From assembly GCA_002869205.1 (NCBI GenBank), contig PKTJ01000066.1:187-64186 (forward strand): a stretch of 64,000 nt of DNA, in the 5' to 3' direction. The notes below the pieces were generated by a model, which was given only the letters and a program-made list of their open reading frames with translations, made no database searches and was not told the origin of the DNA. Made by a program: the position numbers and the translations under genes. This DNA is from Candidatus Parcubacteria bacterium (GTDB lineage Bacteria > Patescibacteriota > Patescibacteriia > Magasanikbacterales > UBA922). This document shows, piece after piece, positions 31,049-52,010 of this stretch; position 1 is the first letter of the stretch; the number at the start of each line of letters is the position of its first letter.

Positions 31049-31120
31049 GGCCCCATCGTCTAGTGGTTAGGACATCTGGTTTTCATCCAGAAAACAGGGG
31101 TTCGATTCCCCTTGGGGCTA
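31049..31120 (+). tRNA. tRNA-Glu (anticodon TTC)
   Basis: Manual cloverleaf: acceptor GGCCCCA/TGGGGCT, anticodon stem-loop TCTGG-TTTTCAT-CCAGA, T-loop GGGGTTCGATTCCCC; CCA not encoded. Confidence 0.75.
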
Positions 31121-31135
31121 CGAATTATCGTACTA

Positions 31136-31164
31136 TTGACATATATGTGTTTATATAGTACTAT
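31136..31164 (+). promoter_or_regulatory. sigma70-like promoter upstream of rplJ (TTGACA-17-TACTAT)
   Basis: Read directly from the sequence. Confidence 0.5.
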
Positions 31165-31189
31165 ATTCACATCCATAGACAGCAGGTGC

Positions 31190-31295
31190 CATAAGGCTTA
31201 ATTTCCTGCCGAGGTAACTCTTAGCTAATTTTAGCTAAAATAAGGTCGAAGAGTACCGAAAAGTCTGTGGTTAAAAACCACAGTTTTATTTTTTC
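31190..31295 (+). promoter_or_regulatory. rplJ (L10) leader with intrinsic terminator/attenuator
   Basis: Structured leader ending in CTGTGG-ttaaaaa-CCACAG plus a T-run 6 nt before the rplJ ATG; analogous to L10-leader autoregulatory elements. Confidence 0.45.
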
Positions 31296-31300
31296 AAGTT

Positions 31301-45480: not shown

Positions 45481-46032
45481 ATGGATTTAATCGCACCACA
45501 TAAGGAGCAGTTTGAAAAAACTATTGAACACTTACGATCTGAAATTTCTGGATTACGTACCGGTCGTGCAACACCTGCGCTTGTCGAAGATATTGTTGTT
45601 GAAGCATATGGTGTCAAACAACAGCTCAAAGCAGTTGCGTCTATTGCCGTTGCTGATGCCAAAACACTTACGGTTGATCCGTGGGACAAAGGCCTTATCC
45701 AGTCAGTTGAGTCAGCTATTAGCCATTCTGATTTGGGGATTAATCCGGTGAATGATGGCAAACTTATTCGTCTACCATTACCTGAACTAACTCAGGATCG
45801 TCGTCAAGAGCTTATCAAAGTTTTACACAAGAAATTAGAAGAGGCACGTGTGGCTATTCGTAAAATTAGAGAAGAAGCACGAAAAGAAATTGATAACAAA
45901 GAGAAAGCAAAAGAAATTGGAGAAGATGAAAAATATAATTTACAAGATGATTTAGATAAGGTAGTCAAAAGTTACAATGAAAAAGCAAAAGAAATTGGAG
46001 ATGAAAAGGAGAAAGAGATAACTACTGTGTAG
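45481..46032 (+). CDS. frr: ribosome recycling factor
   Basis: RRF signature (LRTGRATPALVEDIVVEAYG..LTQDRRQELIK). Confidence 0.95.
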   Translation: MDLIAPHKEQFEKTIEHLRSEISGLRTGRATPALVEDIVVEAYGVKQQLKAVASIAVADAKTLTVDPWDKGLIQSVESAISHSDLGINPVNDGKLIRLPLPELTQDRRQELIKVLHKKLEEARVAIRKIREEARKEIDNKEKAKEIGEDEKYNLQDDLDKVVKSYNEKAKEIGDEKEKEITTV

Positions 46033-46037
46033 TGAGA

Positions 46038-46070
46038 TTCGGATTTCCAGATAATTCAGATTTACGGATA
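46038..46070. repeat. palindromic intergenic repeat family P, copy 4 (half element abutting the dtd start codon)
   Basis: TTCGGATTTCCAGATAATTCAGATTTACGGATATG, where the final ATG is the dtd start. Confidence 0.6.
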
Positions 46071-46507
46071 TGAAAATTATACTACAGCGAGTAACACAAT
46101 CTCAGGTTGATGTAGATAATCAAACCGTTGGAAAAATTTCTAACGGTTTCTTGGTCTTACTTGGTGTAGGTCAAGGAGATACAACTCTTCATGCAGGTAG
46201 TTTGGTTGAAAAGATAATAAAATTGAGAATCTTTGAAGATGAAGATGGAAAAATGAATAAAGATATTACAGAAGTGGGTGGTGAAATGTTGGTTGTGTCC
46301 CAATTTACATTGTATGCAAATTGTAAAAAAGGGAATAGACCTAGTTTCGTAGAAGCTGCACCGCCAGATGAAGCAAAAAAACTATACGAATATTTTGTTA
46401 AAAAAATAAAAGAAAAGGGCATAAGTGTTGCGACGGGTCAGTTTGCAGCACATATGTATGTAGAGCTTGTCAATGACGGGCCTGTCACATTAATTTTAGA
46501 ATCTTAA
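46070..46507 (+). CDS. dtd: D-aminoacyl-tRNA deacylase
   Basis: MKIILQRV, SQFTLYA and GNRPSF motifs; 145 aa. Confidence 0.9.
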   Translation: MKIILQRVTQSQVDVDNQTVGKISNGFLVLLGVGQGDTTLHAGSLVEKIIKLRIFEDEDGKMNKDITEVGGEMLVVSQFTLYANCKKGNRPSFVEAAPPDEAKKLYEYFVKKIKEKGISVATGQFAAHMYVELVNDGPVTLILES

Positions 46508-46512
46508 TTTTT

Positions 46513-47085
46513 ATGAAAAAAACAATCGTACTCATAGGGGTTTTATTTGCAGTGACTTTTATTTTTACCGGTTGTACAAAAACTGATGTAGAAAATGATC
46601 TTGAACAGTCGCGTGAAGGAGAAGAACTTATGACACAAGATGAAGCTGATGTATTGCACCAGGAAGACCAAGAATTTCAAGAAGACTATATGCGTGAACT
46701 CGCTGACGCGACAGAGGAAAAACATCTTGATGAATCTATTGCGCTCATCGATGAGCTCGAAGATGGGTATGCAAAGAAAAAAGAAGGTGGCCACGCAAAA
46801 GGAAGTTGTGATGCAATTGCCGAGAGTTCTACATGTATGGAATATTATGGATCTTTCTGGAATGAAGCAGAGATGAAATTACACTGTTCTGATTCTGGTA
46901 CGTTTTCATTTGATGGATGTCCTTCTGACATGTCGGGTGGGTGTAATACTGGCACTGGTACTTCAGCAGACATGGTTGCGTGGATGTATACACGTGGTGG
47001 CGGGGGTATTACCGTAGAGTCTCTCAAATATGCCAAAATGGCGTGTGATGCAACGATGGCATCGCAGTGGATCATGACTAAATAG
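46513..47085 (+). CDS. acidic lipoprotein, hypothetical
   Basis: Signal peptide with lipobox FTGC, Cys-containing C-terminal region. Confidence 0.5.
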   Translation: MKKTIVLIGVLFAVTFIFTGCTKTDVENDLEQSREGEELMTQDEADVLHQEDQEFQEDYMRELADATEEKHLDESIALIDELEDGYAKKKEGGHAKGSCDAIAESSTCMEYYGSFWNEAEMKLHCSDSGTFSFDGCPSDMSGGCNTGTGTSADMVAWMYTRGGGGITVESLKYAKMACDATMASQWIMTK

Positions 47086-47103
47086 GTTGTCATCGATTAT
47101 GAT

Positions 47104-48417
47104 ATGCCAAAAAAAGCTTCTAAAGAAAGAAAAACAATTTTTGACACTACAGATCTTGAGATAACTAAGGAAATCAAAAAAGCCTTGGGTATAATGGAAA
47201 ATACCAGAGACAATGTGTATGTGACAGGGAAAGCTGGAACAGGTAAGTCTACGCTGCTTAAGCATTTTTGTAATAACACGACAAAAAATATTGCCATAGT
47301 GGCACCAACTGGCGTGTCTGCTATTAACGTTGAAGGAGTGACGATTCATTCCTTTTTTAAATTTCCTTTTGGAATACTCGAGGAAAAAGATGTTGAATAT
47401 CATTTTTTCAAGCAGGATATTTTTAAAAATTTACAGACATTGGTTATAGACGAGGTTTCTATGATTCGATCAGACTTAATGAATGCGATAGACCTCGCAC
47501 TGCGAAAAAATACTGGAAAGAAAAATCTTCCATTTGGTGGAGTACAGGTTGTTATGTTTGGCGATCTTTATCAGTTGCCACCGGTGGTAACGAGCAGAGA
47601 AGAGCGAGATTATCTAAAAGAAACATTTGGAGGAATATATTTTTTTTATGCACCAGTTTTTAAAAAGATGAAGCTTAAGAAAATTAATTTGACCAAAATC
47701 TTTCGACAAAAGGACGATAAAAAATTTGTACAACTTTTGAATAGTATTCGTGAAAAAAAAGTATCAACACAAGATTTGAAAAATATCAACGAACGCGTAG
47801 TACCTTACAATAAGAAAAAAGAACCAGCCATAGTGTTGGCTACGGTAAATAAAACTGTAGATAATATCAATGAAGAAAAATTAGCGCAGATAAAACAAAA
47901 AGAATATACATTTCACCACACATTAACAGGAGATTTTGATGAAAAAAAGTCACCAGCTGATACTGAGCTGAAGTTAAAGAAAGGTGCTCAGATAATGATG
48001 ATTAGAAATGATAACCAAATACCACGTCGTTGGGCCAACGGCACTCTTGGTACAGTCACTACATTGTCAAAAGATAGAATTGTAGTAACAATTGGGGTAG
48101 AAAAATATGAGATAGAAAAAGCAACTTGGGATGATATGGAATATGAGTATGATGAAGAGGAAAAGATAATTGATCGTTTTTCAAAAGGTTCTTTTATACA
48201 ATATCCTCTCAAGCTTGCATGGGCGGTGACCATACACAAGAGTCAGGGTAAAACTTTTGATCGTGTTATTTTGGATTTGGGGCGCGGTGCGTTTACCCAT
48301 GGTCAAACGTATGTTGCATTTAGTAGGTGTACCACTCTTGATGAGATTTATCTCAAACAACCTGTGAGATTTTCAGATATTATTTTGGATAGCGAAGTAA
48401 AGGAATTTCATGAATAA
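47104..48417 (+). CDS. PIF1/RecD-family 5'-3' DNA helicase
   Basis: Walker A GKAGTGKST, DEVSM, GDLYQLPPV and C-terminal ITIHKSQGKTFD motifs. Confidence 0.8.
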   Translation: MPKKASKERKTIFDTTDLEITKEIKKALGIMENTRDNVYVTGKAGTGKSTLLKHFCNNTTKNIAIVAPTGVSAINVEGVTIHSFFKFPFGILEEKDVEYHFFKQDIFKNLQTLVIDEVSMIRSDLMNAIDLALRKNTGKKNLPFGGVQVVMFGDLYQLPPVVTSREERDYLKETFGGIYFFYAPVFKKMKLKKINLTKIFRQKDDKKFVQLLNSIREKKVSTQDLKNINERVVPYNKKKEPAIVLATVNKTVDNINEEKLAQIKQKEYTFHHTLTGDFDEKKSPADTELKLKKGAQIMMIRNDNQIPRRWANGTLGTVTTLSKDRIVVTIGVEKYEIEKATWDDMEYEYDEEEKIIDRFSKGSFIQYPLKLAWAVTIHKSQGKTFDRVILDLGRGAFTHGQTYVAFSRCTTLDEIYLKQPVRFSDIILDSEVKEFHE

Positions 48418-48423
48418 TGTGGC

Positions 48424-48595
48424 TTGACATATACATTGTTTTTAAGTACCATAGATATATCATTTATGAAACATATATGGCGTATGTGGAGATGATACAA
48501 ATCTAACGAGAGATCTGGCAACCAGTCAGATAACTTGGGTGGAACCCCCCGACGCACATCGGGGCCCGAGACCGTTTTTATGGTCTTTTTTTAAT
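48424..48595 (+). promoter_or_regulatory. promoter (TTGACA-17-TACCAT) plus candidate glycine T-box leader with terminator upstream of glyQS
   Basis: AGAGA box, specifier-candidate GGC within ATCTGGCAACC, T-box-like AACTTGGGTGGAACC (UGGA fits the tRNA-Gly discriminator U), then hairpins and a T7 run 45 nt before the glyQS start. Confidence 0.5.
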
Positions 48596-48637
48596 GTAAC
48601 ATATCAGGTATAATTAACATACACATAATATAAATAT

Positions 48638-49948
48638 ATGACTTTAGATAGTTTAGAACCAGTCGTTTCTTTAGCAAAACGTCGTGGTTTTATTTTTCCT
48701 GGATCAGACATCTACGGAGGGCTTGCTAATAGTTGGGACTATGGTCCTCTTGGTGCACAAATGCGCATGAATATTAAGACTGACTGGTGGAAGAAAATTG
48801 TAGAACAGCGCGCAGACATGGTTGGGCTTGATGGTGCCATCATGATGAACCCAAAAGTATGGGAAGCAAGTGGACACGTGGACACGTTTAATGATCCTTT
48901 GGTGGAATGTAAGAAATGTAACAAGCGTTTCCGAGCTGATACTATGACAGGTGAAGAAAAATGTCTCAAAGGAAAAGATCATGAACTGTCAGAACCACGC
49001 ACTTTTAATCTCATGTTTCAGACAAGTCTCGGGAAGACAGGAGAAGACAAAGGAATGGTGTATCTTCGTCCCGAAACAGCTCAAGCAATGTTTGTAAATT
49101 TTAAACATGTATTAGATACAACACGCAAACGTCTGCCATTTGGTATCGCTCAGATTGGAAAAGCATTTCGTAATGAAATTACGCCAGGTAATTTCACGTT
49201 TCGTACGCTTGAATTTGAACAGATGGAAATTGAATATTTTCTTGAGGAAGAAGATTGGAAAGAATCTTTTGAGTCGTGGGCAAATTGGATGGAAGAATGG
49301 GCAGCGTCAGTTGGTATCAATCCAGACATGCTACATCGCTTAGAAGTTCCCGAGGAAGAGCTTGCACATTATTCCAAACGTACGCTCGATTTTGAATTTG
49401 ATTTTCCATTTGGAACAAAAGAATTGTGGGGCCTTGCATATCGCACTGATTTTGATTTGAAAAATCATGAAAAACATTCAGGAGAATCTCTCGTATATTC
49501 TGATCCGGCTGACAATAAGAGAAAAGTAGTGCCGCATGTGGTAGAGCCAACATTTGGTGTTGATCGTACACTTCTAGCAATGCTTGTGAGTGCGTATAGT
49601 GAAGAAGAAGTAAAAGATGGTGACACACGTGTGGTAATGCAATTCAAACCACATATGGCACCATATCACATTGCGGTATTACCGTTATCAAAAAAAGAAG
49701 AGCTTTCAGGTGTAACACACGAAATTTTTGAAGATCTCATAAAGACATATCGATGTGAGTATGATGACACCGGAAGTATTGGTAAGCGTTATCGTCGTCA
49801 AGACGAAATTGGTACACCATATTGTGTTACGGTTGACTTTGACTCACTCGAGGACAAGGCAGTGACTGTACGTGACCGTGATACTATGGAACAGGAGAGG
49901 ATCTCTATTGAAGAGTTAAAAAATTATTTTGAAAATAAATTTAATTAA
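48638..49948 (+). CDS. glyQS: glycine--tRNA ligase (alpha2 type)
   Basis: Class II motifs, WDYGPLG, Zn-ribbon-like CKKC, 436 aa. Confidence 0.9.
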   Translation: MTLDSLEPVVSLAKRRGFIFPGSDIYGGLANSWDYGPLGAQMRMNIKTDWWKKIVEQRADMVGLDGAIMMNPKVWEASGHVDTFNDPLVECKKCNKRFRADTMTGEEKCLKGKDHELSEPRTFNLMFQTSLGKTGEDKGMVYLRPETAQAMFVNFKHVLDTTRKRLPFGIAQIGKAFRNEITPGNFTFRTLEFEQMEIEYFLEEEDWKESFESWANWMEEWAASVGINPDMLHRLEVPEEELAHYSKRTLDFEFDFPFGTKELWGLAYRTDFDLKNHEKHSGESLVYSDPADNKRKVVPHVVEPTFGVDRTLLAMLVSAYSEEEVKDGDTRVVMQFKPHMAPYHIAVLPLSKKEELSGVTHEIFEDLIKTYRCEYDDTGSIGKRYRRQDEIGTPYCVTVDFDSLEDKAVTVRDRDTMEQERISIEELKNYFENKFN

Positions 49949-49959
49949 ATTTAATATTT

Positions 49960-50454
49960 TTGTTGCGTATGGGTGGTGTGGGATTTGGAAAAACAAGAGA
50001 AATAAATAGAACAATAGTAGAAGATGATACGCTAGATACAGAGCCCTGTACTCTTGGCGGAGCGTCTTTGTCACAAGAAGAAAGTTCACCTGATGTGTCT
50101 TCACACGAAGTAGTTACACAGGAGCACGATATCCCAACATCTATTGAAAAAGCGAAAAAGCAGAAAGAGGAATTCGAGTGTGCTTTTAAGAAAGAATTTC
50201 CAACAATGTTTGAAGGTAGAGAGAGAACGGTCTTTGATTGTATTCAGATGTTTGTGGATCAAGATGGTGCTGGTAATCATGAGTTCAAAAAAAGAGGTGA
50301 ACTTACGAAAGCAGACTTGGATAGACGAGAGGAATATGAAAGTGATCTTCTTGAAATATATAAGAGTGGGAGAGGGAGAGATTATGAAGATGCACTTCTA
50401 GAATATCAAGGTATAATCCTTTGTTTGAGAGATTTAACTACTCGAAAGAAATAA
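49960..50454 (+). CDS. hypothetical protein (164 aa)
   Basis: ORF only. Confidence 0.35.
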   Translation: MLRMGGVGFGKTREINRTIVEDDTLDTEPCTLGGASLSQEESSPDVSSHEVVTQEHDIPTSIEKAKKQKEEFECAFKKEFPTMFEGRERTVFDCIQMFVDQDGAGNHEFKKRGELTKADLDRREEYESDLLEIYKSGRGRDYEDALLEYQGIILCLRDLTTRKK

Positions 50455-50747
50455 TCTTTAATATAACACATATGAAACCAGGTAATCCATCTATGGAGGC
50501 AATGCGTGAACAAAGGGCGTTTCGCATAGAGGCTATCGAAGGACAATTAGGTATCGTCAGGGCAAAGTTAGATACTTTGTTTAAAGATAAAGGAGGTTAT
50601 GATATTAATTCTGAAGGGCTCATCTTACAAAAAGAGAGCGAAGTTGTGTTTGAGGGAGATGAGACTGAGGTTTTAAGAGAATCTCAAGAACAATTATTTT
50701 CTTTATATAGAGAACTGAATATACTCAAATCTCAAGAACAAAAATAA
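50421..50747 (+). CDS. hypothetical protein (probable start at MKPGNPS, 50472)
   Basis: ORF only. Confidence 0.35.
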   Translation: MFERFNYSKEIIFNITHMKPGNPSMEAMREQRAFRIEAIEGQLGIVRAKLDTLFKDKGGYDINSEGLILQKESEVVFEGDETEVLRESQEQLFSLYRELNILKSQEQK

Positions 50748-50750
50748 ATT

Positions 50751-52010
50751 ATGTACGAAACATATACATTGAATAATAAAGCACAAGTAATATTTGTCCC
50801 TGTTGAAGGTACGAAATCCGTGACCACGCTTGTTATGTATCCTGTTGGTTCACGCTATGAATCTGAAAAAATGTCCGGTGTATCACACTACGTAGAACAC
50901 CTTATGTTCAAGGGGACAAAGAAGCGCCCAAACACACTCAAACTGACACGAGAAATTGATCGTCTTGGTGCACACTATAATGCGTTTACGGGGAAAGAAT
51001 ATACTGGTTACTATATTACGACTGATGCTGGTTATACCCAGACTGCAATTGATATTTTGTCAGACATGCTTTTTGATTCTCTCTACGATCCAAAAGAAAT
51101 GGAACGTGAAAAAGGGGTAATTGTCGAAGAGATTAGAATGTACAAAGATAATCCACTCATGAACATTGATAATATTTTTGAAGATCTCATGTACGAAGGG
51201 TCTCCGCTTGGTAGAGATATTGCCGGTACTGAGAAACATGTACTTGGGTACAAGCGCAAAGATGTTCTTAATTATCGAGACAAATATTATGAACCTCAAA
51301 ACATGATTATTGCAGTGGCAGGCGCGGTGGATGATAAGACAAAAGAATTAGTAAAAGAATATTTTGGCTCAAGGAAAAATAAAAAGTCATCATCAAAATC
51401 ATTTAAGCCATATTGTTTTGGTTCAGAAAAAAAAGAAGACAGGATTTTGGTTGAGCACAAAGAAACAGACCAAGCGCAGCTTATGCTCGGATTTCCTGGA
51501 TTTAAATATGATGACAAACGAAATGTTGTAGAAGGTGTAATGAATACTATACTTGGTGGTTCCATGAGTTCTCGTTTGTTTATTCAAATTCGTGAGCGCA
51601 GAGGCTTGGCATATATGATTCGTAGCGGATCTGATAATTTTCGTGACACCGGGTACGCATACATACGTGCAGGACTTGATGCAAAAAATATAAACAAAGC
51701 AATTAGTGTAATTAAAAAGGAAATAGAAAAGATTGTAAAAAATGGTGTGACAAAAAAAGAATTAGAAGATGCAAAAACGCATATTCGTGGATCACTCACA
51801 CTGTCTCTTGAAGATTCTGGTGCACAAGCTAGTTGGTATGCGCGCCAAGTGATGTTTGTGCCGACAATTAAGACACCAGAACAAAGACTTGCAGAAATTG
51901 ATAACGTGACAAATGAAGATATTAAACGTGTAGCAAAACAAATTTTCAAATGGAATAAAATGCGTATCTCTGTGATTGGAAATGTCCAAAAAGAAGATAT
52001 TAAATTTTAA
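50751..52010 (+). CDS. M16 family (pitrilysin/insulinase-like) zinc peptidase
   Basis: Inverted zinc motif HxxEH (HYVEHLMFKGT) and downstream E. Confidence 0.85.
   Translation: MYETYTLNNKAQVIFVPVEGTKSVTTLVMYPVGSRYESEKMSGVSHYVEHLMFKGTKKRPNTLKLTREIDRLGAHYNAFTGKEYTGYYITTDAGYTQTAIDILSDMLFDSLYDPKEMEREKGVIVEEIRMYKDNPLMNIDNIFEDLMYEGSPLGRDIAGTEKHVLGYKRKDVLNYRDKYYEPQNMIIAVAGAVDDKTKELVKEYFGSRKNKKSSSKSFKPYCFGSEKKEDRILVEHKETDQAQLMLGFPGFKYDDKRNVVEGVMNTILGGSMSSRLFIQIRERRGLAYMIRSGSDNFRDTGYAYIRAGLDAKNINKAISVIKKEIEKIVKNGVTKKELEDAKTHIRGSLTLSLEDSGAQASWYARQVMFVPTIKTPEQRLAEIDNVTNEDIKRVAKQIFKWNKMRISVIGNVQKEDIKF

Follow-up and report, generated by a model that had tools for sequence, protein, structure and literature searches.

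A T-box-related leader with an ultrashort Stem I upstream of glyQS in Patescibacteria

Results

The stretch of DNA analyzed here (64 kb, referred to as the window) encodes on its plus strand, to which all window coordinates below refer, a class II, single-chain glycyl-tRNA synthetase (GlyRS) of the glyQS type with 436 amino acids (48638-49948), the gene presumably regulated. Its open reading frame carries the Pfam domains tRNA-synt_2b and HGTP_anticodon, and a 94%-identical relative is named glycine--tRNA ligase. The upstream neighbor, a PIF1/RecD-like helicase gene, ends at 48417, and the 220-nt gap between the two genes contains the leader described in this work (48458-48592, ∼135 nt). The window (45481-52010) and the Magasanikbacteria-like contigs L167, L170, L176, and L185 have in common the order frr-(dtd)-glyQS-(small ORFs)-M16 peptidase; the window has an insertion of a lipoprotein-like ORF and the PIF1-type helicase after dtd and before glyQS, and the leader occurs together with this insertion.

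Scans of genome and metagenome collections that were guided by GlyRS yielded 160 loci, mostly from metagenome-assembled genomes (MAGs) of Patescibacteria. No GlyRS more than 64% identical to that of the window was found in the collections scanned, and a search of the 160 glyQS loci with a regular expression and nhmmer returned a single close homologue of the leader, L137, which is collinear with it from the −35 box to the terminator. Closer GlyRS relatives came via a protein collection and contig look-ups. Homologous leaders were thereby found before glyQS in seven other Patescibacteria lineages, namely, L162-164 (GlyRS 94% identical; the MAG is named Candidatus Parcubacteria bacterium at NCBI), L165 (86%), L166 (71%), L137, its relatives L174/175 and L181 (source name Magasanikbacteria), and L180 (also a relative of L137; GlyRS cluster P0190). 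GlyRS identity across the leader-bearing lineages ranges from 54 to 94%, and in all eight lineages, including that of the window, the leader lies directly upstream of glyQS on the same strand. Its distribution, sampled over ∼185 loci, is patchy, since several equally close relatives do without it: the regions upstream of glyQS showed no leader in the GlyRS relatives P0004, P0005, P0050, P0156, and P0141, where glyQS directly adjoins the preceding gene or has a plain promoter in front of it.

The leader is preceded by a promoter, P1 (48424-48452), with the −35 box TTGACA (48424-48429), a 17-nt spacer, and the −10 box TACCAT (48447-48452), which together match the consensus at 10 of 12 positions and would place the start of transcription at ∼48459. 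A counterpart (TTGACA or TTGACT, a spacer of 16 to 19 nt, and TAnnAT) stands at an equal distance to Stem I in L162, L166, L137, L174, L180, and L181. Between the terminator and the glyQS start codon lies a candidate second promoter, P2, whose −10 box TATAAT (48609-48614) is preceded by GG. Here, five of the relatives carry an extended −10 box, TGnTATAAT, 12 to 18 nt past the U-tract (L162, ∼1165-1173; L165; L137, ∼1147-1155; L174, ∼863-871; and L180, ∼891-899), the window has GGTATAAT (48607-48614) as its counterpart, and among the compared leaders the box is absent from L166 and L181. The position and conservation of this box suggest that P2 is a second, tRNA-independent promoter for glyQS.

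At the gathering thresholds of Rfam, a scan of the whole 64-kb window returned three tRNAs, the leader of ribosomal protein L10, and no T-box. The L10 leader (RF00557, 72.8 bits), the only cis-regulatory RNA of the window that reaches its gathering score, follows directly on a tRNA-Glu gene (31049-31121; region 31049-31299). In a permissive scan of 48380-48680, the T-box family RF00230 was the best Rfam match, with 30.5 bits and an E value of 2.9e-5, far under its gathering score of 93 bits (Rfam 15 copy). Stem III, the T-box sequence, and the antiterminator were aligned to the model at high posterior probability, and the Stem I part was aligned poorly. Glycyl T-boxes located before glyQS in Firmicutes, scored as controls, also stay below 93 bits, with 76.2 bits for Allobacillus (L043, 2753-2928) and 63 bits for L076 (2570-2736). 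Since such bona fide controls miss the cutoff as well, failing it is uninformative for glycyl T-boxes; a score of only 30 bits in a patescibacterial host, versus 63 to 76 bits for the real glyQS T-boxes scored, implies that something substantial is missing from the window element. RF00230 matches other members of the family independently (L174 with 41.5 bits and L166 with 28.2 bits). In the alignment of L174, the K-turn and the proximal stem have top posterior probability and 74 distal Stem I positions of the model are deleted, so that Rfam's own model indicates the loss of the distal part of Stem I. An initial annotation, made from the sequence of this stretch, had proposed a glycine T-box before glyQS in a CPR-like host. 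The identity of the gene, the top Rfam family, the covarying leaders of the seven other Patescibacteria lineages, and a loop triplet that is always a glycine codon (see below) bear this out, and the covariance scan that it had called for names the expected family at a score that falls well short of the family's threshold.

Stem I is ultrashort, comprising 40 nt (48458-48497) in both a hand-made table of pairs and RNAalifold predictions. It consists of a C-stem of 7 bp (48458-48464 with 48491-48497), a K-turn-like internal loop in which the bulge TAT (48465-48467) and GAA (48468-48470) lie opposite GGA (48488-48490), an upper stem of 4 bp (48471-48474 with 48484-48487), and an apical loop of 9 nt, ATATGGCGT (AUAUGGCGU as RNA; 48475-48483). 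When RNAalifold was given seven Stem I sequences and no structure, it recovered this fold with 11 pairs, 6 of them with compensatory changes. The internal loop reads as a probable K-turn signature; its GA...GGA is invariant in seven lineages and is placed between the 7-bp and the 4-bp helices. Since Stem I ends in the specifier loop, the elbow-binding platform (AG bulge plus distal loop, IDTM) is absent from both the hand table and the RNAalifold structure, and a comparison with the T-box modules defined in PMC7583486, PMC7778990, and PMC11404447 found no specifier-loop S-turn in the window element.

The proposed specifier is the glycine codon GGC (48479-48481) in this terminal loop. The apical loops of seven lineages read AUAUGGCGU, CUCUGGCAA, GGUGGCAC, CCUUGGCAA, UAUUGGCAA, UGUGGCAA, and GAUGGAAA; the triplet is GGC in six of them and GGA in L180, both of which are glycine codons and match the glyQS gene downstream. 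It is embedded in an invariant motif, U-GG(C/A)-R, with U48478 before and the purine G48482 after it in the window (GGC-G) and with GGC-A or GGA-A in the relatives. Because the preceding base is always U and the following base always a purine, the loop sequence U-GGC-R (48478-48482 and its equivalents in the relatives) would be complementary to five anticodon-loop bases of tRNA-Gly, U33-G-C-C-A37. The complementarities of the leader to the anticodon and to the discriminator base are those expected for tRNA-Gly, which in bacteria generally carries U73; neither the 64-kb window nor 60 related loci contain a tRNA-Gly gene.

Several other readings of this region were set aside. A second GGC (48517-48519) belongs to the paired 5′ strand of Stem III, is separated from the bulge by only ∼20 nt, and lacks conservation, as the sequence of Stem III differs in every lineage. 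Pairing of the loop UGGC with a tRNA 3′ end (GCCA) is less parsimonious, given that GGC and GGA are both glycine codons and that tRNA-Gly ends in UCCA. An extended Stem I that takes in the 3′ end of the helicase gene, as in a truncated cmscan alignment, has low posterior probability and AGU as its “codon,” and P1 is conserved. A base helix found by single-sequence folding (48452-48456 with 48501-48505) has a 5′ strand that shares sequence with the −10 box and precedes the inferred start of transcription.

Stem I is connected to Stem III by a single-stranded linker of 15 nt, CAAATCTAACGAGAG (48498-48512), which can be written CAAAUCUAAC-GAGAG and ends in the purine string GAGAG (48508-48512). 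It is kept as CAAAUYUAAMGAGNG in the window, L137, L180, and L181. As judged from the interval that separates Stem III from Stem I, the window, L137, L166, L180, and L181 have neither Stem II nor the Stem IIA/B pseudoknot. The remaining leaders carry an insert of 40 to 75 nt in this interval (L162, 1005-1080; L165, 75-150; and L174, 710-760), and that of L174 aligns to the Stem IIA/B part of RF00230; a Stem II domain may survive in these inserts as a remnant or in variant form. In L165, positions 1-75, 5′ of the insert, would fold, as drawn on paper, into three short hairpins enclosed by the stem GATAATC...GGATTAT, instead of the usual Stem I. The contig ends at this region, so the true Stem I of L165 may lie further upstream.

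Stem III (ATCTGGC, loop AACCA, and GTCAGAT; 48513-48531) is followed by AA (48532-48533), and the feature as a whole spans 48513-48533. All seven of its pairs change on both sides among the relatives: its sequence is unrelated between lineages and the pairing is always kept. The module RRRxG-Stem III-AA, known from T-boxes (PMC7583486 and PMC7778990), is found in the window (48508-48533), L137, L166, L174, L180, and L181; among the compared leaders, its flanks are missing in L162 and L165, neither of which has the AA. The T-box sequence itself, AACTTGGGTGGAACC, occupies 48532-48546, with TGGA at 48540-48543. According to the RF00230 alignment, the antiterminator helix A1 pairs CTTGGG with CCCGAG (48534-48539 with 48565-48570), and the 7-nt T-box bulge TGGAACC (48540-48546) separates it from helix A2, in which CCCCG pairs with CGGGG (48547-48551 with 48560-48564; loop 48552-48559). 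The bulge UGGAACC is invariant in all eight lineages, A1 shows a compensatory change from G-C to A-U in L180, and A2 has a different sequence in every lineage and is still paired. The basal A2 pair, a G-U in Bacilli glycyl T-boxes, is C48547-G48564 in the window; five of the relatives show G-C instead, with G-U confined to L166 and A-C to L137. In L137, the 3′ strands of Stem III and A2 (1047-1070 and 1083-1102) contain the identical 7-mer GTTGGAG; its Stem III 5′ strand could consequently pair with either, a possible extra alternative structure.

The leader ends in an intrinsic terminator (48568-48592) with the hairpin GAGACCGT, loop TTTT, and ATGGTCTT (48568-48587) and a run of seven T residues (48586-48592), which as RNA reads GAGACCGU-UUUU-AUGGUCUU followed by U5. 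One terminator-like site was found in the 600 nt scanned, where 0.4 would be expected. Its upper stem covaries, with C-G and G-U replaced by A-U and G-C in L174, L180, and L181, and its base, GAG/CUU, is invariant and shows no covariation. The start codon of glyQS stands 45 nt beyond the hairpin and its T7 run. In two relatives, the 5′ UTR between terminator and glyQS is long; it is GC rich and highly self-complementary in L181 (770-960) and contains an AT-rich inverted repeat of GAATA-type units in L165 (300-385). The GGC in a loop context, the T-box-like sequence with UGGA, and the terminator hairpin with its T7 run had all been pointed out in the initial annotation, and each is located in the structure described here. 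The AGAGA also noted there is present (48509-48513), but it does not serve as the AG bulge box of a Stem I, since it is part of the RRRxG string directly 5′ of Stem III.

To describe the family as a whole, we built a covariance model, R1, from six of the leaders and the structure given above, with L165 and L181 outside the training set. R1 finds exactly one site in the window, with 141.6 bits, recovers L165 (42 bits) and L181 (86 bits), and weakly detects classical T-boxes of Firmicutes (19 to 30 bits). In the model-based alignment, 92.4% of the cells are paired, compared with 37 to 46% when partners are slid, 30 of the 34 pairs are changed on both sides, and the covariation score is 0.62, against ≤0.13, with none of 500 shuffles reaching the observed values. 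As this alignment was fitted to the R1 model, the hand table and RNAalifold serve as independent checks. Other T-box-like leaders came to light among the loci. A Parcubacteria-group MAG (L014, 2500-2900) carries before glyQS the T-box core AACTCGGGTGGAACCGCGG, with an insertion of ∼150 nt in the antiterminator loop, a classically overlapping terminator (GCTCGTCC/GGACGGGC), and an early hairpin whose loop reads UUUGGCAG, an architecture that differs from that of the window's family. A metagenome contig (L122, 2250-2420) carries before glyQS a T-box with the variant core AGATGGAACC, a classical overlapping terminator, and an apparent short Stem I containing GGCGGC; R1 scores it at 15 bits (E ∼0.2 to 0.6).

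The initial annotation had expected mutually exclusive terminator and antiterminator folds. Exclusivity holds over 3 bp, as A1 and the terminator of the window share only GAG (48568-48570), and most of the antiterminator can coexist with the terminator. The overlap amounts to 2 to 3 nt in all eight lineages, where the junction CCCGAGAC is conserved. For the window, we evaluated a structure with Stem III, the full antiterminator, and a 5-bp upper terminator at −28.1 kcal/mol and one with Stem III, A2, and the full 8-bp terminator at −26.6 kcal/mol. The minimum free energy, −32.3 kcal/mol, belongs to a fold in which the full terminator is combined with A2 and with the GGG/CCC top of A1, and in which only the lower three A1 pairs compete with the terminator. 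Because the full terminator is part of this fold, termination would be the default state; because the rest of the antiterminator coexists with it, a tRNA would need to hold only those lower three A1 pairs. In solved T-box complexes, the lower A1 pairs stack on Stem III.

Discussion

The leader upstream of glyQS is a real relative of the T-boxes, although not a canonical one: it is a minimal variant rather than a standard member of the class. From its sequence conservation and predicted folds, we propose that it acts as a T-box-derived, tRNA-Gly-responsive transcription attenuator of glyQS that works as outlined below, a reading to which we assign a probability of about two-thirds (∼0.68). The P1 transcript would begin at the short Stem I, where the K-turn would bend the chain, and the 4-bp stem would present the terminal loop U-GGC-R for pairing with the GCC anticodon of tRNA-Gly, as the conservation of the loop and the change from GGC to GGA suggest. 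By analogy with solved complexes of canonical T-boxes, the linker ending in GAGAG, Stem III, and the AA would pack against the antiterminator, and UGGA of the bulge would pair with the 3′ UCCA of uncharged tRNA-Gly. The bound tRNA would then stabilize the full 6-bp A1 (CUUGGG/CCCGAG) and keep GAG (48568-48570) from the terminator. Judging from the energies and the geometry, the terminator would thereby be reduced from 8 to 5 pairs, 3 nt off the U-tract, and RNA polymerase would read through; for intrinsic terminators in general, such a shortening to 5 bp and shift of 3 nt from the U-tract should abolish termination. Without uncharged tRNA, the full terminator would form beside the intact A2 hairpin and transcription would stop. 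The P2-like box may meanwhile provide a tRNA-independent basal level of the essential enzyme.

Some features of the leader point against attenuation. The distal part of Stem I, which canonical T-boxes and all characterized glycyl T-boxes possess, and Stem II are lacking, and the Rfam score stays well under the gathering score. Terminator and antiterminator are compatible for the most part, so that the switch rests on only three invariant, non-covarying pairs. The usual G-U at the base of A2 is replaced by C-G in the window, and many close relatives have no such leader before glyQS. Moreover, with the P2-like box behind the terminator, glyQS might be expressed without need of the leader; if functional, the box leaves some room for two other explanations. 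According to one of them, the leader is a decayed T-box that no longer regulates, glyQS being expressed from P2 and the P1 transcript simply terminating. The lack of a platform and of Stem II, the minimal overlap with the terminator, the conserved TGnTATAAT behind it, and the outright loss of the element in many relatives would fit such a relic, yet compensatory changes are kept in every helix, the K-turn, the bulge, and the purine string are invariant across lineages whose GlyRS are down to 54% identical, and over the same divergence the loop triplet stays a glycine codon. On the strength of this covariation and of the codon-preserving change, we regard decay as unlikely. According to the other, the leader is a stand-alone small RNA that reaches from P1 to the terminator and binds tRNA-Gly or another partner in a role apart from the cis control of glyQS; it could be a decoy, or a regulator that arose from a T-box and acts in trans. 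It is a self-contained unit with its own promoter and terminator, the terminator hairpin can fold while most of the tRNA-binding pocket stays intact, and a separate promoter-like box stands in front of glyQS. However, it is found only immediately upstream of glyQS and on the same strand, in eight of eight lineages, and the conserved junction CCCGAGAC, in which A1 and the terminator share GAG, is a requirement of a switch in cis. We know of no precedent for a T-box-derived stand-alone small RNA, and a T-box-derived RNA with another role is not favored here; we consider it rather unlikely.

Two explanations remain. A canonical full-length glycine T-box, with AGAGA as the AG box of Stem I, an internal specifier loop, and full overlap between terminator and antiterminator, would account for the good match of the T-box core, the bulge, and Stem III to RF00230. 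Against it, the promoter and the linker are only ∼40 nt apart, a distance taken up by a hairpin of 7 bp plus 4 bp that ends in a loop; RF00230 deletes 74 distal Stem I positions to align the family member L174; AGAGA lies 5′ of Stem III, outside Stem I; and the terminator shares only GAG with A1, compared with the ∼9 nt read off the sequence of the Firmicutes control L043. A canonical T-box is thus very improbable and is excluded by this anatomy. A motif that resembles a T-box by chance, in AT-rich intergenic DNA with an ordinary terminator, would agree with the Rfam score below threshold and with the 10-mer GGGTGGNACC, which occurs once in the 64 kb (0.09 expected by chance) and on its own turns up in 9 of 100 shuffled windows. 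Chance is nonetheless a negligible explanation for an entire 135-nt architecture that recurs, with covariation, in seven other lineages and always before glyQS.

We therefore return to the tRNA-responsive attenuator and compare it with known systems. Its closest counterparts are the glyQS and glyQ T-boxes of Bacilli (RF00230; structures from Bacillus subtilis, Geobacillus kaustophilus, and Oceanobacillus iheyensis, see PMC7583486), with which it shares its place as a leader of glyQS, a basal K-turn in Stem I, the specifier GGC with a purine behind it, a single-stranded linker in place of Stem II, RRRxG-Stem III-AA, the UGGAACC that separates A1 from A2, and intrinsic termination at a hairpin with a U-tract. 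Along the proximal Stem I, the 3′ strand (GGC-A-stem-GGA-G) runs almost collinearly with its counterpart in the control L043. In contrast to the Bacilli type, the window's family has no AG bulge, no distal loop, and no S-turn (AGUA/GAA), all of which are distal to the specifier; as this part of Stem I is missing, the codon lies in a terminal loop of 8 to 9 nt. Terminator and antiterminator overlap by 3 nt in the window rather than by ∼9 nt, and at the base of A2 the family has mainly C-G or G-C instead of G-U. The G-U at this position is regarded as a steric sensor of the aminoacyl group, and G-C is tolerated in atypical streptococcal glyQS T-boxes (PMC11404447). The latter also resemble the window's family in their conserved UGGAACC and very short linkers, but their Stem I is long, with AG bulge and apical loop, and their terminator and antiterminator overlap in the typical manner; some of them are without a K-turn, which the window's family keeps strictly.

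A truncated Stem I without the elbow platform is otherwise known from the translational ileS T-boxes of Actinobacteria, whose Stem I is of intermediate length or ultrashort (Sherwood et al. 2015, via PMC7583486), and those of Mycobacterium tuberculosis and Nocardia farcinica likewise retain the K-turn and carry the specifier atop a short Stem I (PMC7583486). They need the S-turn of Stem II and the Stem IIA/B pseudoknot, whereas the window has a 15-nt linker and no Stem II; they act on translation by sequestration of the Shine-Dalgarno sequence, whereas the window has a terminator with a U-tract; and they are specific for isoleucine instead of glycine. It has been generalized that transcriptional T-boxes need the IDTM, that is, a long Stem I platform, to catch the tRNA quickly enough, that Stem I's without IDTM are found in translational actinobacterial T-boxes and function solely in translational control and together with Stem II, and that truncated Stem I's scarcely bind tRNA without Stem II (PMC7583486). 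On paper, the window's family breaks all three generalizations at once. The potential five-base complementarity of its loop to tRNA-Gly may make up for the absence of the platform and of Stem II. By combining a transcriptional readout with a platform-less ultrashort Stem I, no Stem II, and a 3-nt overlap, the leader differs from every described T-box class. We tentatively suggest, at slightly less than even odds, that this is the smallest natural T-box architecture yet and the first from the CPR, with tRNA-Gly read solely by a K-turn-anchored terminal loop and the discriminator domain. A literature search found no paper pairing T-boxes with CPR, Patescibacteria, or Parcubacteria, its coverage being incomplete and an earlier description possible.

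For annotation practice, our scores mean that Rfam at its gathering score of 93 bits would miss ordinary glycyl T-boxes as well as the present patescibacterial family. If our reading is true, the platform is not essential for cotranscriptional sensing of tRNA, contrary to the current generalization, and a conserved, covarying family that has a terminator and neither platform nor Stem II would challenge the rule laid down in PMC7583486. It would also extend T-box regulation to the Patescibacteria and delimit, in ∼135 nt, a minimal core for sensing tRNA that structural studies and engineering could draw on. If P2 is functional, glyQS would be served by a basal, tRNA-independent promoter together with a T-box-gated upstream promoter, a sensible arrangement for an essential gene.
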